In this document: positions 599-33,741 of the stretch, in pieces | Layout: each line of letters starts with the position of its first letter | Numbering within the stretch: position 1 is the stretch's first letter | Assembly: GCA_036479435.1 (NCBI GenBank) | Contig: JAZGFI010000117.1 | Span: forward strand, 1 to 64,000 | Source: Planctomycetota bacterium | GTDB taxonomy: Bacteria > Planctomycetota > GCA-002687715 > DRQF01 | DNA length: 64,000 nucleotides | Direction: 5' to 3' | The notes under the pieces: generated by a model | The model's input: the letters and a program-made list of their open reading frames with translations, nothing else | Databases searched by the model: none | What the model was told of the DNA's origin: nothing | Made by a program: the position numbers and the translations under genes

Positions 599-1743
599 CA
601 GCCGAGCACCCCAAGGGTTTGCCCCAGTTTTTGGAACGTCGCCATCTTTTTGAATCCGAGGAGACGGAAGGCCTCGGTGTACGAAGTCCGCCCTTCGAGG
701 GTGCTGACGACGAGCGCTCGGGCGAAGGTCTTTCCGGCTCGGGCGCCCAGGGTCAGATAGAAATTGCCGCCGGTCCCAGCGGGCAATGCGCGAATGCGGT
801 CAAGTTCGTCGTGATAGGCTTTCCAGTAAGCCGTGGAGTTCAAGCCGCCCGCGTCGTGAATGCGACGCAGAACCACGAGCGTGCTCACTTTGAATCGCCT
901 GGCCAGGCGGTTGATTTCCTCTCCAAGTTCGATCTCGGAATTGTACTCCTCGCGAATTGCCTTAAGCGGGACGAGCAGTTCAGCCGCGACTTGGTTGCAC
1001 CACTTCTCGATGGCGTCGTCCGGAATACTCAACGCCTCCGCGTCTGAGACCGCCGATTGTCCCAACCAGATGTGAGCGATCTCGTGGGCGAGAGTGAACA
1101 TCTGTGCGGCTTTGGAATCAGCACCATTGATAAATACCAGAGGTGCAAGCGAGTCAGCGAGCGCAAAGCCGCGAAACTCCTGCGGATCCAGCTTGCGCCG
1201 GTTGTTACTGCCAACGACGCCGCTCACCATGATGAGGATACCAAGCGCATCAGCCTGCCCGATGAATCGTCGAAGGGCGTCCGTCCAGGTAGGGGTGAGT
1301 CGGCGCTCCTCAAGATCGAAACAGAGAGCGCTCCGAATAGTGGCGGCGGTTTTGACGACGTCGTCTTTGGAACGAGCAGAACCCACAAACTCCAGTGGCT
1401 CGTCACCAACAGCGCCAGCAAAGTCGCGGTACCAGTCCTGGCGTTGCTGACAAAGATAGATCGTGTCTAGGAGATCAGGGCTTGGCTGGCCCATGTGAAC
1501 ATTAGCGACGGTGCGAAAATCGGGGATGGGGACGCTCTCGACGGGCGCCTCGTCCAAAAACAGAAAGCCAACGGGCGTGAATGTCGCCTTCGCGAAAGCC
1601 TCAAGCTGTTTGAGCGTCGGATGCAAGACACCGCTCTCCCAGGCCTCAACCTTTGGGAACCGCTGGCGGAGAGCATCGATGCTGAGCCCAGAGCGCCCTC
1701 GAGCCCACTGGAGCAGTTCTGGTTTGATGGCGACGCGGTTCAT
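598..1743 (-). CDS. XRE-HTH plus ImmA/IrrE-family metallopeptidase
   Basis: N-terminal HTH (LQWARGRSG...WESG...PTLKQL), FTLAHEIAH HExxH motif, EKWCNQVAAELL. Confidence 0.9.
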   Translation of the reverse strand: MNRVAIKPELLQWARGRSGLSIDALRQRFPKVEAWESGVLHPTLKQLEAFAKATFTPVGFLFLDEAPVESVPIPDFRTVANVHMGQPSPDLLDTIYLCQQRQDWYRDFAGAVGDEPLEFVGSARSKDDVVKTAATIRSALCFDLEERRLTPTWTDALRRFIGQADALGILIMVSGVVGSNNRRKLDPQEFRGFALADSLAPLVFINGADSKAAQMFTLAHEIAHIWLGQSAVSDAEALSIPDDAIEKWCNQVAAELLVPLKAIREEYNSEIELGEEINRLARRFKVSTLVVLRRIHDAGGLNSTAYWKAYHDELDRIRALPAGTGGNFYLTLGARAGKTFARALVVSTLEGRTSYTEAFRLLGFKKMATFQKLGQTLGVLG

Positions 1744-4334
1744 CAGTTCTTATACCGCCTCACGCGGTCGAACCAGACTTCTACTTTCTGAAGTTCCTGC
1801 TCGAGAACTGCGACATCAGGCGGTACATAGTTGACCAAGACGCTCTTGTCGTGCCGTTTCGCCCATCGAGAGAGTCGACCGTAACTGGCATCGAATTCGG
1901 CGTGATCCGTTTCGGTGAATCGAGCCAGAAGCCTCACCATCATCGGACGGACCTCCAGTCCACCATTCGCGAGAACGCGCCCGACAATCTCCTGACTAAA
2001 GATACGCTCCCAAGTCTCGGACAGTTTTCCAGCCCATAAGGCGACTTCTACCTCGTATCGTTTGTCATCCCAGACGGAGCATTCCTTCTTTATTTGAGCC
2101 ATTGAGGCCCCGAGTTCATTCAAGCACGCAGCGACTACTTTTGCCTTCCAAGGGTGCCCCTTGCCGCAAGACCCAGGTTTTCGATCGCCAGCGCGACTCC
2201 GAGACACGGACAGTGCGGCAATTTGGACTTCCTTCTCGGCGCCCTCTAAATTGAGGTCCGCAACGAATGATAGGTCGTGAGTGAACACAACGACTTGACG
2301 ATCCACGGCGAACGCCGCCAGTCGCGTCGCCACGAGCCCACGGCGGACATGATCGAGCGAGTTGACCGGGTCGTCCAGTATGAGCGCAGACTTGGATGCG
2401 TCTAACCGTGCCTCAGTAAAGAACGAGGCAAGGCCAAGCGCGGTCCGCTCTCCCTCGCTGAATACGCGTGGGAGCGTGACTTCCTGGCGTGCGCCTTCGA
2501 GTTTTGGCTGATGATGCAAAACCCCCTTGTCGGATCGGGTCCGGGTGATGGTGACACGTTCGAGGCGAAGCCGATCAGTCTCGGTAGCGAATGTTTCGCG
2601 AATCACTTCGGTGATGCTCTCTTCAGAAAACTCGTTGATTTTCCTGGTAATCGCCCCTGTGGCGGCAGCGGTCTTGGCCGCCTCTAACGCATCTCGTTCT
2701 CTTCGGCGTTCGATCTCTTTCACGACTGCCTCGCGCGATTTCTTGGCCTCTTGGATTAGTTCATGCTCAATCCTTCTTCGGCCGAGCTCCACCAGCCGCT
2801 TCTGAATCCCATCTGGGCTGCCGAGGCATGCTGCCGTGCTCGTCGTGGCATCGGTGGCTTGCCGCAATCGTTCACGAACGTTGCCCGGATCGATTCCGAA
2901 TCGAGGCGTCTTCTCCGAACTCGCAATTGCATCGAGAATCTTCGCTTGCGCTTCCTGATAGCACGCCAGCAGGCTGCGCGTTTCGGCTACTAGTTCCGAG
3001 TGGCTCATCTCCAGATCTTGCAGGTTGCTTTTCACCTCCTCGGGCGAGTCGTCAAGTTCTGTCAGACGAGCGATCTGCGCGTCGTGTGTACTGAGGGCTT
3101 CTTTCAACTGAACCTGAGCGTCGTCCTTGACGAATCGGTCGAATCGAGCGAATCGATCACGTTCGTCTTTCTCAAAAGTCTGGAGGCAGAGTACGCAGCG
3201 ACTGTCCTCATTCAGAACCGGAAAAGTCTCACCGAGGTATGCAGACTCCTCCGAAAAACGCCTCGCAGACTCCCAAAGAATCTTCCATGGTGAGCTGCCA
3301 ACGCCGGGGAGTGGCTCTGATTCTAACGAGCGCGCAAGAACGGCTCCCGCTTGCTCGAGAACAAGGAGGTTATCTCGGTGCTGCTGAAGCGTCATCAGTG
3401 CTTTGTCTCCGAGCACAGCATTCAGTCGCTCCAAGTGCTTGCGCAGAGCGCCGAGTTTTTCGCCCTGCCGTTTTAGCTTCTTCTTTTCTTTGGCGGGGTC
3501 GGCAGATTGCATGGTTGCCTCTTGCTTCTTGAGATTTTGGATGACTTCTCCGGTATCAACGCACTCAATGATCAAAGCATCAAGGTCCTCAGCTAAGGAT
3601 TGCCCCGAGAGGTCCGTGAGGAATCTGCCAATACTCGTGTTTTTTGCGTCTTCGGGAATGGTGGGCAAGATGTTTATCGACCGGAGATTGCTTTCTAGCT
3701 TGACCTCGATGCGGCTCCGGACCTTGTCGCAGGCCTCAATGAGGCCATCCATGACGAACAACGCGGAGGGCCGGTAAGGGAATTCAGACTCCGAGGATAC
3801 GTATGCGCTCCCGCAGGCTCCGTCGTAAAACAAGATGCGTTTCAAGTCTGGACGTCCCGTGCCCGGCCAATCAACTGTCTCCTTGTCGTCGCCGATCAGA
3901 ATGGACAGCTCAGCCGTTGGGTTTGCCAACGACGCGTCACGGAAAACATCCGAAAGAACATCCTCTTGGTGCCGTGCTCGGGTGATCCGTTTCAACAGTC
4001 TTGCGTATCCGGATTTCCCGCTTCCGTTGTCGCCAAAGATGATGGTTAGGCCTTTCGGCTCAAGTCTTAGGGGCAAACTGGACTCGAGGGCGTTGACGTG
4101 TTGAAGCTTGTCAATTGCCACAAGCCGAACCGACGGGTCATTTGGCGTCGTCTGTGGCAGTTGTTTGATGCCAAAGGTCGACTTAGAGAATAGTCTCCCC
4201 TCCACGATGCCCTTGACCAGTTCGTCATAGTCTGCGTCAGAGAGTTTATCGCCCGTGGCGACTCGGCTCATGACTTCCCGCTGCCATGTTGGGCGTGTTT
4301 GACTCCAGGCGACGATTAACTCCTCTAACGTCAT
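1743..4334 (-). CDS. RloC/Rad50-like ABC ATPase with coiled coil, zinc hook and putative C-terminal HEPN domain
   Basis: Walker A GDNGSGKS, central CVLC, signature FSEGE, Walker B/D-loop ILDDPVNSLD, H-loop FTHD, C-terminal RWAKRH; start placed at MTLEEL (ATG 4334). Confidence 0.75.
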   Translation of the reverse strand: MTLEELIVAWSQTRPTWQREVMSRVATGDKLSDADYDELVKGIVEGRLFSKSTFGIKQLPQTTPNDPSVRLVAIDKLQHVNALESSLPLRLEPKGLTIIFGDNGSGKSGYARLLKRITRARHQEDVLSDVFRDASLANPTAELSILIGDDKETVDWPGTGRPDLKRILFYDGACGSAYVSSESEFPYRPSALFVMDGLIEACDKVRSRIEVKLESNLRSINILPTIPEDAKNTSIGRFLTDLSGQSLAEDLDALIIECVDTGEVIQNLKKQEATMQSADPAKEKKKLKRQGEKLGALRKHLERLNAVLGDKALMTLQQHRDNLLVLEQAGAVLARSLESEPLPGVGSSPWKILWESARRFSEESAYLGETFPVLNEDSRCVLCLQTFEKDERDRFARFDRFVKDDAQVQLKEALSTHDAQIARLTELDDSPEEVKSNLQDLEMSHSELVAETRSLLACYQEAQAKILDAIASSEKTPRFGIDPGNVRERLRQATDATTSTAACLGSPDGIQKRLVELGRRRIEHELIQEAKKSREAVVKEIERRRERDALEAAKTAAATGAITRKINEFSEESITEVIRETFATETDRLRLERVTITRTRSDKGVLHHQPKLEGARQEVTLPRVFSEGERTALGLASFFTEARLDASKSALILDDPVNSLDHVRRGLVATRLAAFAVDRQVVVFTHDLSFVADLNLEGAEKEVQIAALSVSRSRAGDRKPGSCGKGHPWKAKVVAACLNELGASMAQIKKECSVWDDKRYEVEVALWAGKLSETWERIFSQEIVGRVLANGGLEVRPMMVRLLARFTETDHAEFDASYGRLSRWAKRHDKSVLVNYVPPDVAVLEQELQKVEVWFDRVRRYKN

Positions 4335-4871
4335 GTGTTTCGTGCTCCACGAATGATGCTGGCTGCGCAACGGCCGTCGATGGTGTTCGGCGAGTCTGGC
4401 TGCAATGACCGACATCGCAGCTTGGTGTATTTTGCGAGGGAACCAGGCACACCCAGCGTCATCTCTCCTTGGTTCCGGCGGGACGAGCATTCTGCGGCTT
4501 GGATTCCCTGCGTCACTCTGCCGTCTGTTGTCATACCTACCTCGTGGCCCGATTTGGACGAGTCATGGCCTGCCGCAAACTGTGGCGGAAACTCGGAAGA
4601 GTTGTGCTCCTCAGAACTCCGATCTCTAGCAGATTCGTACCAACGCCCGACGAAAACACAGGCACTTACGTGCATCCGGTGACAGCGCCTGTCATGGCCG
4701 GAGTTTCGCTCTATGTTGTTGACCTGTCAAGTCGTTAAGAGCCATTCAAGAGGGTGATTTGAGTCGATTGACACCGAGGGGGTCGCCGGATGGTAGACGG
4801 CGGTTGATGTCTGCGCCTAGATGGCGCTTTGCGCGCATGACCGCCAACGACATGTGGGCGGAGCCCGCGAG

Positions 4872-5310
4872 TTATAGTGGCTCGTCACCTATCGACCGCG
4901 TGAAATCTCGGTACCACTCCTGGCGTTGTTGGCAAAGGTAGATCGTGTCCAAGAGATCAGGACTCGGATGGCCTGCATGAACATTGGCGATGGCCCGGAA
5001 ATCAGGGATGGGTACGATCTCGACGGGAGCCTCGTCCAAGAACAAATAACCCACCGGCGTGAAGGTCGCCTTGGCAAAAGCCTCAAGCTGCTTGAGCGTC
5101 GGGTGAATTTCGCCGCTCTCCCATGCTTTCAGTTTCGGGAACCGCCCAAGGAGCGCGTCCACGCCGAGTCCAGCGCGCCCCCGCGCCCACTGGAGAAGTC
5201 TTGGTTTGACGGCGACGCGGTTCATGCGTTTTGATATTCCCTCACGCGGCTGAACTAGGTTATTACGAATTGAGGCTCCTGAACAAAGCCCGATGCATCG
5301 GCGAATCTTT
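4872..5310 (-). pseudogene. Relic second copy: 3' end of the ATPase (with stop) plus truncated 117-aa N-terminus of the HTH-ImmA gene
   Basis: MNRVAVKPRLLQWARGR...GDEPL closely parallels 598-1743 but stops before the peptidase domain; upstream reads *FSRVREYQN versus WFDRVRRYKN in the intact ATPase; upstream boundary approximate. Confidence 0.8.
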
Positions 5311-5489
5311 AGTTCTCGGGCACAGCGAAGCGGCGCATCCCGATCTGGGCCAGCTGATATCTCAAGTTCTGTTGACGACGGCTCTCACGCGTCCTACTCT
5401 CGCTAAGTGAAAACAGTCAGGTGAAGCCGGGGAGCTTTGAGTTAAGTCTCTCGGTGCGGCGTGAGTTTTGTTCTGGAGTGGCGTAGATC

Positions 5490-7790
5490 GTGCGGGTTGT
5501 CTTTGTCTTGGTGGGCTTGGGTCTGTTGGCTGGATCTGGGTCGTATTTCTTTTTCACGCGAGAGAAAGCTGAAGCGGACCGGGTTGCGGAATGGGCGACA
5601 GGTCGCAGCGATGTCCTTAGTCGCTTTGGGCATGAGGCCGGTAGCGGCAAAACTGTGGCGGCTTCACGGCGCGGAATTGCGGTGGCTGGCTATGCGCGTT
5701 TTCATCGGTCTGGTGAACGAGGTTTGGTGGGGCTTGTCGCTGACGCCGAGCAGACGGGAAGGGTCGCGGTAGATGGGCTACTAGCTGAGATCTACCTGGA
5801 CGAACTCGGCTATCGCAATGCGGAGGTAGAGCGCTGCCGGGAAGCGGACGCGCACGCGGCCTTGGTTTTGAGGTTGGCGAAAAGTAGGCCTTTATTGGCC
5901 TTGGGCTACGTCGAGATGCTGAAGAAGTCGGAGGAAGAGTCGCTTCGTGGCCGAGGCGACGGGCTTTCGCAAATTGAGGTCTTTTTGCGATCTCTAACGG
6001 ACTCTGAAATCGACTGGGATGGCGTGGGTTCGGGGGCGGGATGGCTGGTGCCGAGCGTGGCGGAGCTTGTGCGAACACACTTCGAAAACCGCGAGCAACC
6101 TGAGCTGGCAGCGATCAGCGCGTTCATTGAGAAAGTCCTGGCCCTGGTGGATCGGCACCAAGATCGTGTGCGGTCGATCTTGGAGGCCTTCGGACCTCGG
6201 GGCTTGGCGCTATTGATTGAGTGGGATGAGGAAGTCGTCTACTTGATTCATAAAGAACACCTGCCCTGGAACGAAGTGATGATGGTGTTGCTTCGACAGC
6301 GTGACTTGTTGTTGCAACGCCGCGCGAAACTGGGGTCGGCACTGGGGGTGTCTGAGTACCTAACCCAGATTGCGCGAAACCGCCCTCGACTTTGGATTGC
6401 CGCTCAACGCGGGTTCGGGGCTTTGAGAATTCACGAAGCCAATCCAGAGCACTCGGACTCGATTTTTGAGATGGAGTACGCGGACGAGTTTGGGGTCTTA
6501 CTGACCGAGAATTTTGAGGGTGCGGCTCTCAAGGGAGCCATCGAAGCCGTCCATCGCTATGGAGGGCTCGCGGGAATGCTGTTGCAGAAATGGAAACATG
6601 ACCAGCGCTTGGCGGAGGCTTTGGCTGAGCCTGGTGTCGGATCAAAGATCATCATGTTGCTGGCACTAGAAAAGGATGCACTGGGAAAGTACGGATCAAA
6701 CAAAGAATGGGTCGACAAGGTCGTCGACGAACAGGGGCGACTGCGAGAAGACGGTTGGTGGCGAGATAAAATCCCAGGCGGACAGGTCTTTTATGTCTTT
6801 GGCCTTTGGCTTGACGGGAAACCCATCACCCTTGAAGAGATGGGGTTGGCCCTGGTTGACGCGGCTGACTTGACCTTGACGGTCTTGACTTTCGGGGGCT
6901 CCGCGGCGGTGTCGGCTGCGGCTAAAATCGGCAGGGGCGCGGGGAAAATCGGTCTCAAAAGGCTTGCGAAGGGTGTCGTTAAGTCAGGTTCGAAATCGGC
7001 CGTCAGGCCGTCAATAGGCCGCAATGTAGGATCGATTGCTTTCGGCGCAGTGAAAGAGCATGGCAGGTCGATCGCCGAGATCATGGAGATTGCCGAAGAG
7101 TTCGCTACCGGATCGTTGCAAGCGGAGATGCATGATCTTATAGATCGACAGCTCAGGTTTTCTGAGCATGGATCCGTACCCGATGCCGTCCGTCAACAAG
7201 AACTCTCGTTGACTGTTCAGCGAGCGCTCAAGATCCTGGCGGCGAACGCCTCTGCGAGTTTCTTTAGAAACAAGCGGCTGGCAGGCCGGGCAACGATGAC
7301 CGAAACCCGGACCGTCCTAAGCAGGCGACCCAAAAATTCCTGGTTAGAACAACTGAGGCAACTTCCAGATTGGAAAAAAATGCTGAGGGAACTCTCTGAC
7401 GCCCTTGAACTCTCATCTGACTTGAAGGCTCTGGCGCGTGTGGAAGAAAACGAATCGAGAATGCGAGAATTGGGTGGACGCTCTTTTCTACCGGCGTCGT
7501 TGGCCCCAATGCAGGATCTTGGGGCCGATTCAAGTAGCCGGCGAGCAAGCAACTCAGTGGTGGCGGCATTTGCTCTTACCGATGCCCTTTCCGGTCAAGA
7601 GTCGATCTTGGACCTCGAGGCTCCATCATCAAAAATAGAAATCGATCAGTTTTTTTCTGAGGCCCTCATGCGCGTCCCGCGCAAGCCGGCTCCGTCAAGA
7701 CGCGACCCTGCGACGACCGGCTTGGTCATCCTCGGGGGATTGATGGGCCTGGCTCTCTCGACATACTCGATTCGAAATCGAAGGAGCTGA
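5490..7790 (+). CDS. Hypothetical membrane-anchored helical protein, 766 aa
   Basis: Long ORF with N-terminal and C-terminal hydrophobic segments and an internal Gly/Ala-rich hydrophobic stretch; 5 bp from the GTPase gene. Confidence 0.75.
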   Translation: MRVVFVLVGLGLLAGSGSYFFFTREKAEADRVAEWATGRSDVLSRFGHEAGSGKTVAASRRGIAVAGYARFHRSGERGLVGLVADAEQTGRVAVDGLLAEIYLDELGYRNAEVERCREADAHAALVLRLAKSRPLLALGYVEMLKKSEEESLRGRGDGLSQIEVFLRSLTDSEIDWDGVGSGAGWLVPSVAELVRTHFENREQPELAAISAFIEKVLALVDRHQDRVRSILEAFGPRGLALLIEWDEEVVYLIHKEHLPWNEVMMVLLRQRDLLLQRRAKLGSALGVSEYLTQIARNRPRLWIAAQRGFGALRIHEANPEHSDSIFEMEYADEFGVLLTENFEGAALKGAIEAVHRYGGLAGMLLQKWKHDQRLAEALAEPGVGSKIIMLLALEKDALGKYGSNKEWVDKVVDEQGRLREDGWWRDKIPGGQVFYVFGLWLDGKPITLEEMGLALVDAADLTLTVLTFGGSAAVSAAAKIGRGAGKIGLKRLAKGVVKSGSKSAVRPSIGRNVGSIAFGAVKEHGRSIAEIMEIAEEFATGSLQAEMHDLIDRQLRFSEHGSVPDAVRQQELSLTVQRALKILAANASASFFRNKRLAGRATMTETRTVLSRRPKNSWLEQLRQLPDWKKMLRELSDALELSSDLKALARVEENESRMRELGGRSFLPASLAPMQDLGADSSSRRASNSVVAAFALTDALSGQESILDLEAPSSKIEIDQFFSEALMRVPRKPAPSRRDPATTGLVILGGLMGLALSTYSIRNRRS

Positions 7791-7795
7791 CCGAA

Positions 7796-9697
7796 GTGCC
7801 TAAATCAGAATCAGTTTCGAACCCCAAAGCCGATTCGGTCGAAGCGGTTAGCAAGTCGGCGCCTAAGGACGCGCGGAGCGTTGTCCTCATCGGCGCCGTC
7901 GCTTCCGGCAAGACGACTTTTCTGGCCGGCCTTAGGGTTGTGGCGGAAACTTCGCGGGACAATGAAATTCAGGTCTTTCCTGGAGATGAGGACACGCAAT
8001 CTGTCCTCGACGAAGCTCAAGGGTCGTTGCGAAACGGTGTTTGGCCAGCAGCCACCACCACGGCCCACCATCATGAGATTATGATCAAGTACCGAACTGC
8101 GACGATCCAGTTGACGGCCTTGGACTATCCCGGCGAAGAACTCGATCGACTTTTGGAGACCTCCGGGTCGCCCGCTGGACGGAAATTGCGTGAGACGCTC
8201 AGTAAAGCCGACCGGCTGTTAGTGCTCATCGATCCTCTTCAGCACGTGGACCAGGGTGACCTATCGACTCGGAGGCTGGATAGCGTGATGCGCGCCATTC
8301 AATTTTCGGTAGACAAAAACCAAGGCCGACCCGATTCAAGGGAACAACAAGTTGCGGTCATTGTTACGAAGTTTGACCTCCACCTTGAAAATGACTTTAG
8401 CTCCAAGAGGGCAGTGGAGGTTCTTAAGCGATCGATTCCTCCATTGCTGCGTAAGATCTCAGCAATCGTGCCCGGTGTGTCCGTGTACCCAGTTTCGTGC
8501 ACCGGCGCTGGGGCCACAGAGGAGTCTCCGCCGACACAACTCCACCCGCGCGGCTACGAGGCTGTTCTTTCGTGGCTCGCCGACTTAGACCAATTGGACA
8601 AGTCGGCCCCAAGACGATTCTGGCGGCGTTACCGCATCCATCTTCTGATGCTAATTGTCTCGGCGGGGATCGTCGGCGCCCTGTGGTGGCGGAACGATCG
8701 AGTCAAAAAGATCGCATCACTCGAAAGCTCGCGCGAACTCGACGCGTTGCCCAATATTGATCAACGAAGAATCGATGCCCCGCTATTCGACGAGCTGACC
8801 GATAGTTGGTTTCAGAATCGCGAGGCCGAACTCAACGAGCTGTCTACGATCAATCAAGCGCGTGGACTCATCACTCGGCTCGAAGACGCTTCGACAAACG
8901 CTTTGTCGGCGGACACAAGGTTGAGGCTCCTTGGCGTGAGCAGCCGTGCAAACGAGAGCCTAGAGGCGATGATTTTCCAACGAGCAAAAGACTCGAAGGG
9001 CAAGCCGATCTTCCAAGAACACGCTCAGCAGTATATAGAAGAGTATCCGCACGGGAAGTTCTCAGATCGCATTCGTAGTTGGACCAATGCCCAACGAAAT
9101 GAGTTCATCCAAAGCCTCGCGAAGATTGTCCGCGACATTCAGATCACGAACCGCGACTCTCTGACTAGAAAATCCAATGCCATCAAAAGTTACCTCGATC
9201 AAGCCAAAGACATCGGGACCAATCGCAACAAGATGCAGCGCGCGCTTGAGCTTTGCCAGCTTTTGGCCACTAAGTCCCGGTGGACGATCCGAGTCTTAGC
9301 GGTCGGCGAGTTTACCGGAAATCGTGACCACGGATTCCGCATTTACATGAACGACAAACACGATGACGATGACTGCGTTTTCCAAGGCGGCGTCGAGGAA
9401 AAAGCAAGGCACAGCACCTACAACGAAAGCAAGACCGTGGACTGGGGGCCTGGCGATAGTTTCGCCTTGGTCCTTTACGACTGCAACTGGTGGAACCAAT
9501 GGGCCGCTTGGACCAAACTCTACGGCCCCATCGCGATCCTCGGATGTCACGGACGCATTCAGTTGGAGTCCAAGGCCGACAACTTCAGCAAGGATGATTT
9601 TGACGGTACTCCATACTTTAAGGCTGAGGTTGAGGAGTTACGGGCCGGAGATCTCGAAATTGCCCGCGACTTCATCTACCCGGGACACAAGTGGTAA
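7796..9697 (+). CDS. TRAFAC-class GTPase with a transmembrane helix and C-terminal domain of unknown function
   Basis: G1 GAVASGKTT, G3 DYPGE, G4 TKFD, then TM HLLMLIVSAGIVGALWW. Confidence 0.8.
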   Translation: MPKSESVSNPKADSVEAVSKSAPKDARSVVLIGAVASGKTTFLAGLRVVAETSRDNEIQVFPGDEDTQSVLDEAQGSLRNGVWPAATTTAHHHEIMIKYRTATIQLTALDYPGEELDRLLETSGSPAGRKLRETLSKADRLLVLIDPLQHVDQGDLSTRRLDSVMRAIQFSVDKNQGRPDSREQQVAVIVTKFDLHLENDFSSKRAVEVLKRSIPPLLRKISAIVPGVSVYPVSCTGAGATEESPPTQLHPRGYEAVLSWLADLDQLDKSAPRRFWRRYRIHLLMLIVSAGIVGALWWRNDRVKKIASLESSRELDALPNIDQRRIDAPLFDELTDSWFQNREAELNELSTINQARGLITRLEDASTNALSADTRLRLLGVSSRANESLEAMIFQRAKDSKGKPIFQEHAQQYIEEYPHGKFSDRIRSWTNAQRNEFIQSLAKIVRDIQITNRDSLTRKSNAIKSYLDQAKDIGTNRNKMQRALELCQLLATKSRWTIRVLAVGEFTGNRDHGFRIYMNDKHDDDDCVFQGGVEEKARHSTYNESKTVDWGPGDSFALVLYDCNWWNQWAAWTKLYGPIAILGCHGRIQLESKADNFSKDDFDGTPYFKAEVEELRAGDLEIARDFIYPGHKW

Positions 9698-10662
9698 ACG
9701 GAAAGGCTCCAGCCCCATTGGTGTGGGGAAAGCTTCCAGAAGACCCTCGGGGAGGCTATGGCTTCCTAAACGAGCCTGAACACGAGCCGGCTACCGAAAA
9801 CCTCAAGACTTGGGTCCAAGACCATCTCTTCGGTGCGCTCGCTTGGCGCGAGACTTCGACCAAAGCACACGAGCCGGCTTTCGCCTACTGTCGCAACCCA
9901 GAGATTGACTTCTTGGCGCGGATTTGCGACGAGGGGACCACTCGCGGCCGCAGCCACGCCATGCGTATTGAAGCGGTATTAGTCGCCAATTCTGAATCAT
10001 CAAGAGAGCCCTTTGAGTGGGCCAAGCTCGATGCGCTTTGGAGCGAAACTCTTCAAGAAGGCAACTCTGTCGTGCCGACGAGTTTGAGCCAAACGAGCGC
10101 AATCGGCCCAACGCTTTTGTTCTCAAGAGCCGATCGTTCTTTGCGAGTGGCGAAGGACAGCTCAATTCGTTGGGCAGAATCGGCGCGCCAAAGAGAAGTT
10201 CAGCGCGAAGAACCGGCGCTCCCAAAGTCTCCCAATGCCTCGCGCCCAGTCATGCCTGCGCCGCCGCCTCAACCGCCAAGAGAGAGTTCGAAAATGGAAC
10301 GCAGGGTCCTCGTTGCACTGGGGATTGTCACGTTGATCCTGGCCATTGTCGCATGGAGTCAGTCCGATCAGATTGACTCAATCCAATCCGAAAATAAGCG
10401 CCTTCTGAATCGAGTTGACGAGTTAGGAAAGAGCAATCAGCTCCTCAAGGTACGGAGTTTTGACTCGGTCCAGGCCCGCATGAGTGCTGAGGATCGACTG
10501 GCGGAGGAACAGTTGCTTTTGGAGAATGTCGAGGGGCGCGCAAGAATCAGTGAGCAGTCAAATCGAGACATCGAAGAGAAGCTAAGACGTGTTCGCAACG
10601 CTCTGACCTCACCCGAAACGGTGTCAAGATCTCGTCTGCTAGAGATAGTCAACTCAAAGTAG
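9691..10662 (+). CDS. GTPase-associated protein: TagF/GAP1-like N-terminus, Pro-rich linker, TM, coiled coil
   Basis: VWGKLP start motif, PAPPPQPP linker, VLVALGIVTLILAIVAW TM, heptad-rich tail; overlaps the GTPase stop. Confidence 0.55.
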   Translation: MVNGKAPAPLVWGKLPEDPRGGYGFLNEPEHEPATENLKTWVQDHLFGALAWRETSTKAHEPAFAYCRNPEIDFLARICDEGTTRGRSHAMRIEAVLVANSESSREPFEWAKLDALWSETLQEGNSVVPTSLSQTSAIGPTLLFSRADRSLRVAKDSSIRWAESARQREVQREEPALPKSPNASRPVMPAPPPQPPRESSKMERRVLVALGIVTLILAIVAWSQSDQIDSIQSENKRLLNRVDELGKSNQLLKVRSFDSVQARMSAEDRLAEEQLLLENVEGRARISEQSNRDIEEKLRRVRNALTSPETVSRSRLLEIVNSK

Positions 10663-10745
10663 TGGTTCCATCTGAACCGGTCTCTAGACGGCGGTTGAGA
10701 CCTTCGGAAAGTGGATTGACCGGGTGTTTGCGTTCATTCGTCTTC

Positions 10746-10810
10746 TCACGGATTGATGATGAGAGTTCCGGTTCCCTCGAAATCATACAGGTGCCGAGCA
10801 AGACTCTCAC
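10746..10810 (-). pseudogene. vapC (PIN toxin) remnant with internal deletion
   Basis: GTG overlapping the antitoxin stop gives VRVLLGTCMIS; the adjacent frame gives DFEGTGTLIINP*, resembling VapC N- and C-termini joined directly. Confidence 0.7.
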
Positions 10811-11046
10811 AGCTCAAGATCCCGCGCTGGGCCCTTATTACGTTCAAGGTCAAGTTCGCTCCAATCTGGGCCGTTCATCAAGAACTCGACTAGGCTCGGC
10901 TTTGCGCCCGTGAGCCTTTGATATTCCTCTTCGGACAGAACATAGACCGCGTCGTTGCGGCGCTCGATTCGTTGAGGTCCCTCTTGCATGGCAAGCCGGA
11001 CGACTTCACTGAATTTGTTTTTGGCTTCGGAAAACTCCCAGATCAC
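10807..11046 (-). CDS. Phd/YefM-family antitoxin
   Basis: WEFSEAKNKFSEVV...EGPQRIERR...VLSEEEYQRL; GGAGG RBS before GTG 11046. Confidence 0.88.
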   Translation of the reverse strand: MIWEFSEAKNKFSEVVRLAMQEGPQRIERRNDAVYVLSEEEYQRLTGAKPSLVEFLMNGPDWSELDLERNKGPARDLEL

Positions 11047-11162
11047 GAGCTTACCCTCCAGACAAAACCTAACTGATCTATGTCTTTGGCGGCTGTGTTG
11101 AGCTGAATTCTGAGCTCTTTTGCTAGGTGAGGCCAACAGGTCATGGAAGTTGGTCAGAAATG

Positions 11163-11226: not shown

Positions 11227-11769
11227 TTAGTTGGCTTTGGTTTCGGCTTTGGCTTTGAGGTTTTGGAGGCCTTTGTCGTAGATGGTGGTGACGAGGCCGG
11301 GGACGACGGCGGCCATGATGCCGCCGAGGAAGCCCTTCATTTCGCCCTTCATGGTCCAGGTGACTTTGGTGCCGTCGCCGTCGGGGCTGTAGATCATTTC
11401 ACACTTGGCGGGTTGGGGGTCGTCGCTGCCGGGGGAGGTGATGGCCATGTCGTAGGCGAGGCCGGTTTTGGGATCGCTTTTGGTGAAGGTGAGGCTGCCG
11501 GAGCCTTGGTCGCTGGTCCAGGTTTGGGAGGCGCCGACGCCGACGGTTTTGGCGCCGAGCGTGACCTTGACGCCGGGGTCAGCTTCTTCGAAAGGCGTCC
11601 ACTCGTCCCACTTTTTGAGGTCGCCGACGTAGGCGTGGATGGCTTCGGGTTTGGCGTTGATCGTGATGGAGGACTCGACCGAGTAGTCCTTGTCGAGCAT
11701 GAGGGCGGCGCCGACGAGGAGGGCTACGAAGAGGACTAAGAGGATGAGGAGGATCTTTAGGATCTTCAT
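11227..11769 (-). CDS. SRPBCC (polyketide cyclase-like) family protein with N-terminal anchor
   Basis: YSVESSITINAKPEAIHAYVGDLKKWDEWTPF, GTKVTWTM, YDKGLQNLK. Confidence 0.85.
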   Translation of the reverse strand: MKILKILLILLVLFVALLVGAALMLDKDYSVESSITINAKPEAIHAYVGDLKKWDEWTPFEEADPGVKVTLGAKTVGVGASQTWTSDQGSGSLTFTKSDPKTGLAYDMAITSPGSDDPQPAKCEMIYSPDGDGTKVTWTMKGEMKGFLGGIMAAVVPGLVTTIYDKGLQNLKAKAETKAN

Positions 11770-11984
11770 GAGTGGGCGCGGGCTCCGGGATTTGTGGTTT
11801 TGCGGGAATGAGGTCGAGTACTGACGCTGGTTTTGGTCAGAGCTTTCGGACCTCGGATTTGGGTCTTTGACTGTGGTCGAGGTTAGCGAACTGGCCTGAG
11901 AGCGGAAAGGGGCGCTGGGGTCGGTGTTGTCGCCCGAATCTGGCAGAATAGGGGGTTCTTGACGCCTAAGGAGAAGCTTTGCCC

Positions 11985-13307
11985 ATGTCTGGCCCGCTGT
12001 CTGAGCACTTGAAGAATGTACTGCCCGAATCTGATCCTGAAATTGCGGCCCTGATTGGGCGCGAAAAAGATCGGCAAAACGATGGGGCGGAGCTGATCGC
12101 CTCGGAGAATTTTGTTTCGCCGGCGGTGATGCAGGCGGCCGGTTCGGTGTTGACGAATAAGTACGCCGAAGGACTTCCGGGCAAGCGCTATTACGGCGGT
12201 TGCCATGTGGTGGATGAGGTTGAAGATCTGGCGCGGGAGCGGGCGAAGAAACTCTTTTCCTGTGACTGGGTGAACGTTCAGCCGCACTCGGGGGCTTCGG
12301 CGAACTCGGCGGTCTATCTGACTTGTTTGAAGCCCGGCGAAAAGCTGCTGGGTTTGGATCTTGCGCATGGCGGACACCTGACACATGGCTCGCCCGCCAA
12401 CTTCTCCGGCATTCTGTACGAAGCCCATTTTTATGGGGTGGAAAAAGACGGCGCTGGTGCCGGTCGCATCGACATGGACAAGGTGCGTGAACGTGCTTTG
12501 AAAGTGCGGCCGAAGATGATCTCGATCGGGGCGAGCGCCTACTCGCGTGATTTTGATTATCGCGCGTTTAGAGAGATCGCGGACGAAGTGGACGCGATTT
12601 TGTGGATGGACATGGCACACACCGCGGGGCTGATTGCGGGTAAGCATCTGTCAGACCCCTTGCCGCACGCTCATATCGTGACGACCACGACGCACAAGAC
12701 TTTGCGCGGCACCCGCGGCGGGATGATCTTGATCGGGAGTGACTACGAAAACACTCTTGGCAAAGTGGCGCGCAAATCCGGGCGAGTGAAGATGATGTCC
12801 GAGCTTTTGGACTCGGCGGTTTTTCCGGGCATGCAGGGTGGACCCTTGGTGCACGGCATTGGAGGAAAGGCCGTGGCCTTTGGCGAGGCCTTGCAACCTT
12901 CGTTTGTGGACTACGGCGCGCGGGTGATTGAAAATGCCCAGGCCATGGCCGAAGCGTTGACGGAGCGCGGCTACCAACTGGTGTCAGGAGGGACCGACAA
13001 TCACCTCATGCTCGTCGATTTGTCCAACAAAGATATCAGCGGCAAAAAAGCCGAGCGGGTGCTCGGTGCCGCAGAGATTACGGTCAACAAAAACATGGTT
13101 CCCTTTGACCAACGTAGCCCGATGGTGACGAGTGGTATCCGCTTGGGCACCGCGGCGATGACGACGCGGGGCTTGGGACCGGATGAATTTAGAAGGCTCG
13201 TCGCGATGATCGACGAGGTTATCTCCAACGCCGACGACGAAGCGGTCTTTAGCCGCGTGGCCGGCGAAGTGCGCGAGCTTTGCCATGCCTTCCCGCTCTA
13301 CGCCTGA
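11985..13307 (+). CDS. glyA: Serine hydroxymethyltransferase
   Basis: [33 protein letters not shown]. Confidence 0.98.
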
Positions 13308-33643: not shown

Positions 33644-33741
33644 TGGCGGGAGTGCATGGGAATCGAACCCACCGAACGAGTTATTTGCTCGTTCCACCGG
33701 ATTTGAAATCCGAACCCGGCACCAGCACGAGAACCACTCCC
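33644..33741 (-). tRNA. selC: tRNA-Sec (anticodon UCA)
   Basis: Reverse complement GGGAGTGG...CGGATTTCAAATCCG, long variable arm GAACGAGC/CTCGTTC, GTTCGATTCC, ending CACTCCCGCCA; adjacent to selD/selA. Confidence 0.95.

Follow-up and report, generated by a model that had tools for sequence, protein, structure and literature searches.

The question raised by this locus is whether three adjoining genes for predicted membrane proteins form a functional unit and, if so, what kind of system they encode. The genes lie in a 64,000-nucleotide stretch of contig JAZGFI010000117.1 from a Planctomycetota bacterium, which is referred to here as the window. Gene A (5490..7790, + strand) encodes a 766-amino acid (aa) multi-pass membrane protein with an all-alpha domain. 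Gene B (7796..9697, +) encodes a 633-aa protein with a DO-GTPase domain, a transmembrane (TM) helix, a helical domain, and a beta-sandwich. Gene C (9691..10662, +) encodes a 323-aa protein that appears to be a trimmed GAP1-N2-like protein with a TM helix and a coiled coil. These three genes make up a cassette of about 5.2 kb. It is a real, conserved, and compact form of the DO-GTPase/GAP1 kind of system, which is itself known so far only from computation; its function we infer from the evidence below. The original prediction, made by a model from the letters of the window alone, had described a tight operon in which 5 bp separate A from B and the genes B and C share 7 bp, and the coordinates of the open reading frames (ORFs) bear this out.

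The three genes were found together well beyond the window. One set of related loci was seeded with B and holds 15 genome loci, with one genome per species. A is located directly 5' of B in 12 of these 15 loci. The other three are a contig that starts at B (L008), a locus with unrelated genes at that place (L010), and a divergent split GTPase set (L014). C is located 3' of B in 10 of the 15, and two loci end inside B (L009 and L012). The second set was seeded with A and holds 30 metagenome loci, some of them duplicates; four end inside A, which leaves 26 that are assessable. B directly follows A in 22 of these (the exceptions are L046, L047, L051, and L055), and among the 18 loci that reach beyond B, 14 have C after it. 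No match to C was obtained at L038, at L042 and its duplicate L043, or at L050. The genes thus co-occur elsewhere, and in the same order in dozens of unrelated contigs, so the arrangement in the window is not due to chance. Distance matrices over 20 distinct triples are correlated for each pair of proteins (r 0.95 for A-B, 0.90 for B-C, and 0.89 for A-C), and none of 2000 permutations gave an r as high as that observed. This co-divergence shows inheritance as a unit and not physical interaction as such. No fourth conserved gene was found among 127 neighboring ORFs in 33 loci. A, B, and C are a conserved unit that is inherited together across phyla.

Several loci depart from the usual arrangement. 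In L042, the place of C is taken by a 393-aa ORF, possibly a C that has diverged further. The four contigs named above have A without B, and two of them carry an integrase or other unrelated genes beside it. L010, from a Gemmataceae metagenome-assembled genome (MAG), has B without A or C. In L015, A and B are each split in two frames, by a frameshift or an assembly error. In L065, a gene for a HepT-family (HEPN) toxin (5502-5852) lies between A and B, and the remaining order is kept; the 98-aa ORF before it (5213-5509) looks like the MNT-type partner of HepT, judging from its sequence. Two closely related loci (L005:2837-5761 and L064:2047-5028) have a gene for an ECF-type sigma factor and one for a Ser/Thr kinase-FGE-sulfatase fusion directly 5' of A on the same strand. 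L039 has a gene convergent to the cassette (5723-7633, -) for a 636-aa protein with a weak MMR_HSR1 match (E 7.7e-6), which is not recognized by the B-family profile.

According to the record titles, most of the loci with the cassette belong to Planctomycetota, and the others to Hydrogenedentes, Verrucomicrobiales, one Deltaproteobacteria MAG, and Beggiatoa. The cassette spans at least five phyla, yet it is rare. It was not found in 60 relatives that were searched with B (1 of 61 in all). Nor did the A profile recover it at E <= 1e-10 from a further 400 genomes of the phylum (1 of 401 in all), in a search that scored only a few first-look candidates per genome. These data fit a cassette of accessory, transferable character, and it can be viewed as an exchangeable accessory trait because its distribution is patchy and crosses phyla.

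B is a DO-GTPase. Residues 29-203 match the Pfam membership profiles DO-GTPase1 (PF19975, 42.6 bits) and DO-GTPase2 (PF19993, 39.1 bits), each with a cut-off of 27. Its relatives do so as well (45 of 45 match DO-GTPase2 and 41 of 45 match DO-GTPase1). The TRAFAC GTPase domain (7874..8545, +, residues 27-250), predicted to be cytoplasmic, contains the motifs G1 (G33-x4-G38-K39-T40), G3 (D110-Y-P-G113-E114), G4 (T191-K192-x-D194), and G5 (S234-x-x-G237). These motifs are kept across 45-78 relatives, with DYPGE as the G3 consensus. The intact G1, G3, and G4 motifs of the original prediction can therefore be read in the translation and in relatives, and the TM helix that it had noted is found at residues 279-299. 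B also has the Walker-B Glu (E114) that is a hallmark of the DO-GTPase family. A single GTPase had been claimed, and the genome does hold one DO-GTPase2 (PF19993) match, B itself; no second paralogous GTPase was found with this profile in the whole genome. No N-terminal zinc ribbon was seen, as there is no Cys-rich stretch in residues 1-26.

With B as the query, 1.84 billion cluster representatives were searched exhaustively by HMMER. There were 271 matches at E <= 1e-3, of which 121 reached E <= 1e-10 and 23 reached E <= 1e-30. Many of these relatives are full length (about 620-650 aa) and about 25% identical. Forty-five of them were aligned, and conservation is seen in the GTPase motifs, in the TM helix, and in the P-G-x-x-W at the extreme C-terminal end. 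When B, A, or the A profile was used in a word-index homology search, the query alone came back, and PDB sequences searched with the A, B, and C family profiles gave nothing below E 0.005. In an unrooted quick tree of G-domains, 92 B-type sequences fall on one side of a branch (SH-aLRT 87) and shorter DO-GTPases form a separate clade (support 98). The B of the window sits on a long branch in this tree.

The AlphaFold2 (AF2) model of B, built from 78 sequences, has a mean predicted local distance difference test (pLDDT) of 88.9. In this model a continuous helix (residues 254-305) runs through the membrane. It includes the TM helix (8630..8692, +, residues 279-299), which was identified by hydropathy and appears to be oriented N-in. 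Next are a helical domain (8777..9271, +, residues 328-492, pLDDT mostly >90), predicted to be extracytoplasmic, and a beta-sandwich of C2-like topology (9278..9676, +, residues 495-627), followed by P629-G630-x-x-W633 at the C-terminal end. W550, P629, G630, and W633 are conserved in this part of the protein. No specific fold match was seen for the helical domain in searches of whole B, which were dominated by the GTPase domain. The beta-sandwich is provisionally described as C2-like from Foldseek rows to C2 domains, for example 9zk1_D (E 1.9e-5, TM-score 0.66 by target), with a root-mean-square deviation (rmsd) of 4.3 over 133 columns.

The closest folds to the G-domain of B are the small GTPases Arf and Rag/Gtr (Z 15.4-14.8, rmsd about 3, 165-179 residues aligned). 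Unlike B, these are eukaryotic or Asgard soluble or lipid-anchored switches, and at about 12-17% identity the likeness is one of fold only. The best solved-structure match beyond the minimal G-domain is YcjX (PDB 6nz4, 6nz5, and 6nz6), which shares an enlarged G-domain with B (VIA Z 14.8, rmsd 3.4-3.8, 223-233 aligned; Foldseek E 1.8e-6) and is called a "stress protein" in the PDB entries. Unlike B, YcjX belongs to a different family by sequence and has no TM helix, no periplasmic domains, and no recorded GAP1-like partner. The YcjX profile DUF463 (PF04317) gave 13.8 bits on B with a cut-off of 25, which is similarity of fold only, and matched one of the 45 B relatives (E 0.0037). B was also considered as a dynamin-like GTPase of the LeoA/HP0731 type. 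This was rejected, with NCBIfam NF041922 at 11.1 bits and a cut-off of 325.

C probably carries a divergent GAP1-N2 domain. This N-terminal domain (9691..10200, +, residues 1-~170) contains W12-G13-K14 and the block R77..D80.G82....R87.H89..R92 (RSHAMRIEA). The genes located 3' of B-type GTPases elsewhere form one family with the C of the window. Members have [FWY]-G-[KR] at the N-terminus and the block R..D.G.D..GRPHTLRI, followed by a linker of low complexity, a TM helix, and a tail of coiled-coil type; RSHAMRIEA is the version of the GRPHTLRI block found in the window. Eleven C N-domains were compared by hhalign with nine canonical GAP1-N2 domains from the same phylum, and they aligned over 133 columns with a score of 37.7 (E 3.3e-5). 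The RPHTLRIE of C is placed opposite the GAP1-N2 block aG.DYTGR.N.lAHhl.lE. None of the controls (one reversed profile, ten column-shuffled profiles, and four unrelated profiles) scored above 17.7 or reached an E below 0.15. A second comparison with larger alignments gave the same register (E 2.7e-4, probability 42%, 166 columns). The Pfam GAP1-N2 profile (PF20013, cut-off 24 bits) is matched by 6 of 23 C relatives at E <= 1, and one of these is above the cut-off; the best match has 26.1 bits over profile positions 12-131 of 139, and another has 21.1 bits. A structural neighbor of C in the ESM Atlas belongs to a cluster with GAP1-N2 in 11% of its members, which is a weak lead (TM-score 0.33).

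The profile comparison bears out the kinship to GAP1 systems that had been suggested, with the third protein as a trimmed GAP1-N2-type partner; for the C of the window itself this is probable and not proven. The search with family profiles gave a divided answer, with the DO-GTPase profiles above cut-off in B and GAP1-N2 matched by some relatives of C and not by the window's own copy. Neither GAP1-M nor GAP1-C was found in 22 C relatives scanned singly (E <= 0.002) or in the C of the window (E <= 1). In the canonical GAP1 proteins of the phylum, GAP1-M follows directly after N2 (residues ~147-245), and the GTPases linked to canonical GAP1-N2 also match DO-GTPase2. No canonical GAP1-N2 was found in the source genome. 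A predicted complex of B (20-275) with C (1-175) scored 0.00 with the fold of the partner uncertain, which speaks neither for nor against binding.

The remainder of C is consistent with the WGKLP, Pro-linker, TM helix, and coiled coil that were originally read in it. WGKLP is at residues 12-16. A Pro-rich linker precedes the TM helix (10294..10368, +, residues 202-226), which has a hydropathy peak of 2.35 and is conserved in the family. The Pro/Gly-poor C-terminal tail (10369..10659, +, residues 227-323) is possibly a coiled coil and is predicted to be extracytoplasmic. It has weak matches to coiled-coil or TM-plus-coiled-coil families (DUF2570, FtsL, DivIC, and others), and DUF2570 reached 23.7 bits, below its cut-off of 26.6. 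Weak PF20013 matches in ~370-430-aa frames of other genomes (L027-L029 and L031-L035) were set aside, as these belong to a different compact GAP1-N2 variant and not to the C family. In L027-L029, a DO-GTPase2-type gene of ~475-495 aa is followed by a gene for a ~385-430-aa protein with GAP1-N2 at 22-24.6 bits, which is about the cut-off. By profile hidden Markov model (HMM), this second gene is unrelated to the C family.

A matches no known family or fold and is the constant partner in the cassette. The original prediction had described it as anchored at both ends, and hydropathy does place a TM helix at each (5496..5558, +, residues 3-23, also seen in family-mean hydropathy, and 7704..7778, +, residues 739-763). 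A C-terminal TM helix is found in the relatives too. In the AF2 model, A is all-alpha (mean pLDDT 62.9). Confidence is low outside an all-alpha core (6057..6749, +, residues ~190-420, pLDDT 82-97), which lies within a predicted extracytoplasmic domain (~29-449) and in which E262, W302, D396, and G416 are invariant among 30 sequences. The most conserved segment of the protein (6822..6911, +, residues 445-474) has the pattern P445..W448.E450.G452-W453-A454..D457..D460..L463..G469.S471, and this pattern was used to seed the metagenome scan. Family-averaged hydropathy indicates a further conserved hydrophobic helix here, with acidic residues (450-474), and it is followed by a Lys/Arg-rich stretch (family net charge +2.5). 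This helix is probably a second TM helix, TM2.

The partner was claimed to be unrecognized, and it remains so in every collection searched. No match to A was found in Pfam, NCBIfam, or PADLOC, nor a Pfam match to 12 of its relatives, nor a match to PDB sequences with a 30-sequence profile. Fold searches, all with the whole protein, gave nothing specific. Foldseek against the PDB returned nothing at E <= 1e-3, with TAL-effector rows at a TM-score of about 0.11. The best hits of a VIA-wide search (Z 7.5) were 60-residue helical bundles and thus generic, and the tape-measure proteins found in BFVD (TM-score about 0.1, rmsd >25) were generic helical matches also. In the ESM Atlas, no score for A reached 0.9.

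All three proteins have TM helices by hydropathy, as had been proposed (A 3-23 and 739-763, B 279-299, and C 202-226), and family-averaged hydropathy backs those of B and C. The topology can be inferred from the family charge bias that flanks these helices, which around the TM helix of B is a net +2.4 before and -1.0 after. From this bias, the cytoplasmic parts would be B's GTPase domain, C's GAP1-N2-like domain, and the Lys/Arg-rich stretch of A, and the periplasmic parts would be A's ~420-aa helical domain (~29-449), the helical and C2-like domains of B, and the coiled coil of C. Together, the three proteins would have about 850 residues outside the cytoplasm. With outside domains and a cytoplasmic GTPase, the cassette would therefore span the inner membrane.

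The cassette can be compared with the GTPase-centric systems of the GAP1-N2 type (Kaur, Burroughs, Iyer & Aravind, 2020, eLife 9:e52696, PMC7159879). DO-GTPases are there a TRAFAC clade with a conserved Walker B Glu; zinc ribbons at the N-terminus (60%) and a further, paralogous GTPase (38%) are frequent and not universal. Like these systems, the cassette has a DO-GTPase with the Walker-B Glu and a probable GAP1-N2-type gene directly downstream, a GTPase that continues into a TM helix on its C-terminal side and a beta-sandwich outside the cell, and a GAP1 protein with a C-terminal TM helix. It also occurs in planctomycetes and verrucomicrobia, and its predicted action is at the membrane. Unlike these systems, it has one GTPase, no zinc ribbons, and no tubulin, HSP70, or kinase theme. 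Fibronectin type III (FNIII), tubulin, HSP70, and kinase components were not found in A, B, C, or the flanks, and none is conserved in the 33 loci, where a Ser/Thr kinase-FGE gene is upstream only at L005 and L064. A further difference is that a variable effector is missing and its place is taken by the constant, ~700-aa multi-pass helical protein A, which is not mentioned in the portions of the paper considered.

The original prediction called this an undescribed system, and that stands for the three-gene arrangement. No description of it was found in the literature searched on DO-GTPase/GAP1 families, a search that covered the paper in part and did not extend to its gene-neighborhood source data. 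The claim does not hold for the general architectures, since those portions already describe, on a general level, DO-GTPases that carry a TM helix and an extracellular beta-sandwich C-terminally, as well as GAP1 proteins that have TM helices at the C-terminus (Kaur et al., 2020). The canonical systems are big, multi-component, and variable. The cassette is the opposite, with three constant genes, one GTPase, a GAP1 that is only an N-domain, and one partner of no known family. It could serve as a minimal model for the role of the GTPase-GAP1 pair, for whether GAP1-N2 acts as a GTPase-activating protein, a guanine nucleotide exchange factor, or an effector adaptor, and for the output. The two protein families defined here, A and the short form of C, are unnamed in current family libraries.

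The explanation that is tentatively preferred, held at a little under even confidence, is that the cassette is a minimal all-membrane GAP1-N2-type GTPase-centric system that acts as an envelope-surveillance conflict (defense-type) module rather than in housekeeping. A periplasmic assembly would sense when the envelope is disturbed, for example by phage attack or some other invasive insult, and the signal would cross the membrane to the GTPase of B. The GTP/GDP state of B would be set jointly with the GAP1-N2-like C, as a threshold switch, and the output would be at the membrane itself, via A. No enzyme-type effector is encoded in the cassette. A may be a putative membrane-perturbing or ion-conducting effector that is gated, because its most conserved element is a hydrophobic helix with invariant E450 and D457. 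A bolder and rather unlikely version is a trans-envelope GTP-gated machine in which A is a new class of membrane effector. E450 and D457, and in most members D460 too, would make up a gated pore or path for ions; B and C would detect an envelope breach through their periplasmic domains, and the GTPase/GAP1-N2 pair would license opening. If true, this would be a three-protein abortive-infection switch without an enzymatic effector, and the simplest tractable experimental entry to DO-GTPase/GAP1 systems.

A number of findings weigh against a defense-type conflict module. The conflict role of these systems is itself a computational inference, and no experiments on any DO-GTPase/GAP1 system were found in the portions of the literature searched. 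A hypervariable component is described as a hallmark of conflict systems (Kaur et al., 2020), whereas all three proteins of the cassette are constant. Its GAP1 protein has only the N2-like domain, followed by a TM helix and coiled coil, with no GAP1-M or GAP1-C, and the C of the window gave no Pfam GAP1-N2 match (E <= 1). An FNIII-repeat protein is missing as well. The effector role given to A is a conjecture, and its proposed TM2 contains two to three acidic residues and is modeled at a pLDDT of ~58-75. The cassette was not found in plasmid, phage, or IMG/VR viral-contig collections. In PADLOC-DB 2.0, A and C have no match and B has P-loop-only matches (E >= 6e-4, at most about 45 residues). 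A toxin-antitoxin (TA), defense, or mobile gene was found within 5 kb in 11 of 33 related loci (WYL-WCX, RAMPs, HicB, HTH with HEPN/RES, IS21/IS91/DDE transposases, integrases, and HepT), a figure that has no baseline control and may not be an enrichment, and most neighbors are ordinary metabolic or envelope genes. Linkage to defense islands is thus modest and suggestive at most. The defense role of the original prediction is putative, with this figure and with no PADLOC system match.

The main rival is an accessory envelope-stress or membrane-maintenance module, not involved in immunity, in which the GTPase monitors, repairs, or remodels the inner membrane or periplasm. This is a possible explanation, on balance not a likely one. 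Such a module would resemble YcjX, which works with the membrane partner YcjF, or DO-GTPases located beside phage-shock-protein (psp) operons. The match to the YcjX "stress protein" is in its favor, as are the mostly housekeeping or metabolic neighbors in related loci and the constancy of all three proteins, with no variable effector. A preprint, in the part considered, ties DO-GTPases to psp operons. The DUF463 score, well short of its cut-off, is against it. So is the window copy, which adjoins candidate defense and TA genes. The very patchy distribution across phyla (1/61 relatives and 1/401 phylum genomes) also counts against it, although stress modules can be patchy too.

An improbable alternative is a device for cell-surface organization, cell-cell recognition, or trafficking, in which an envelope structure would be built or positioned by the periplasmic domains, with the GTPase as a spatial or assembly switch in the manner of Arf- and Rag-type GTPases. 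The Arf- and Rag-like fold of the G-domain would suit this, but it is silent on the process controlled. The ~850 residues predicted outside the cytoplasm and the occurrence mainly in Planctomycetota and Verrucomicrobiota, which have complex envelopes, are consistent with it as well. However, none of the 400 other phylum genomes that were sampled yielded the cassette, so it cannot be a feature of envelopes in general, and no secretion, pilus, or adhesin genes are conserved beside it in the 33 loci. That the genes are chance neighbors or mis-called ORFs and no functional unit is refuted for practical purposes by the synteny survey. The GTG starts throughout and the clear Shine-Dalgarno sequence for B only could be taken for signs of mis-calling. 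Every ORF, however, has full-length relatives at ~20-30% identity, the order and spacing repeat in dozens of contigs from several phyla, and A, B, and C co-diverge.

The start codon is GTG in each of the three genes. B has an AAGGAG 8 nt upstream and is alone among the three with a clear Shine-Dalgarno sequence. The ESM Atlas record of C begins at residue 10 of the 323-aa call. The start at 9691 is favored because family alignments keep the residues before residue 10, and a conserved Pro/Ala is found 5' of the [FWY]G[KR] motif. The 7-bp overlap between B and C holds only if C starts there. A promoter and terminator scan gave counts not above those of shuffled sequence. ORF D (10662-10913, +, 83 aa), directly after C, was considered as a fourth gene. 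It has no family match and is probably not a gene. The sequence 3' of C varies between those related loci for which downstream ORFs are listed. A small ORF on the other strand (10437-10652, -) matches nothing.

The cassette lies between TA and defense genes in the window, as was first noted, and its upstream flank is defense-like. A PDC-S06 candidate defense gene (1743-4490, -) encodes a 915-aa ABC/SMC-like ATPase (524.8 bits), and the PADLOC match is full length (profile positions 1-855 of 858). Beside it are an M78 (ImmA/IrrE) peptidase gene and a DUF4411 gene (71-1743, -), which overlap by 1 bp. The M78 gene has RmrA- and CapP-like PADLOC matches (53.7 and 51 bits), and the DUF4411 gene matches with 169.7 bits. 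The two look like a TA or regulator pair. A 117-aa ORF (4872-5225, -) resembles the start of the M78 protein, with 81% identity to its residues 1-117. In addition, a direct repeat of 300 nt with 77% identity (1376-1675 and 4858-5157) brackets the PDC-S06 gene, which suggests a duplication or insertion event there.

Downstream of the cassette is a Phd/YefM-type antitoxin gene (10807-11136, -, 40.2 bits), with no recognizable toxin ORF adjoining it, and beyond this are housekeeping genes. A 385-aa ORF (11227-12384, -) has an SRPBCC (Polyketide_cyc2) domain at residues 235-381 and overlaps the SHMT gene (11979-13307, +) by about 400 nt. Its true start is probably far 3' of the listed GTG. Farther along the window is a tRNA-SeC gene (33644-33741, -) with the anticodon TCA, and the source organism therefore probably uses selenocysteine.

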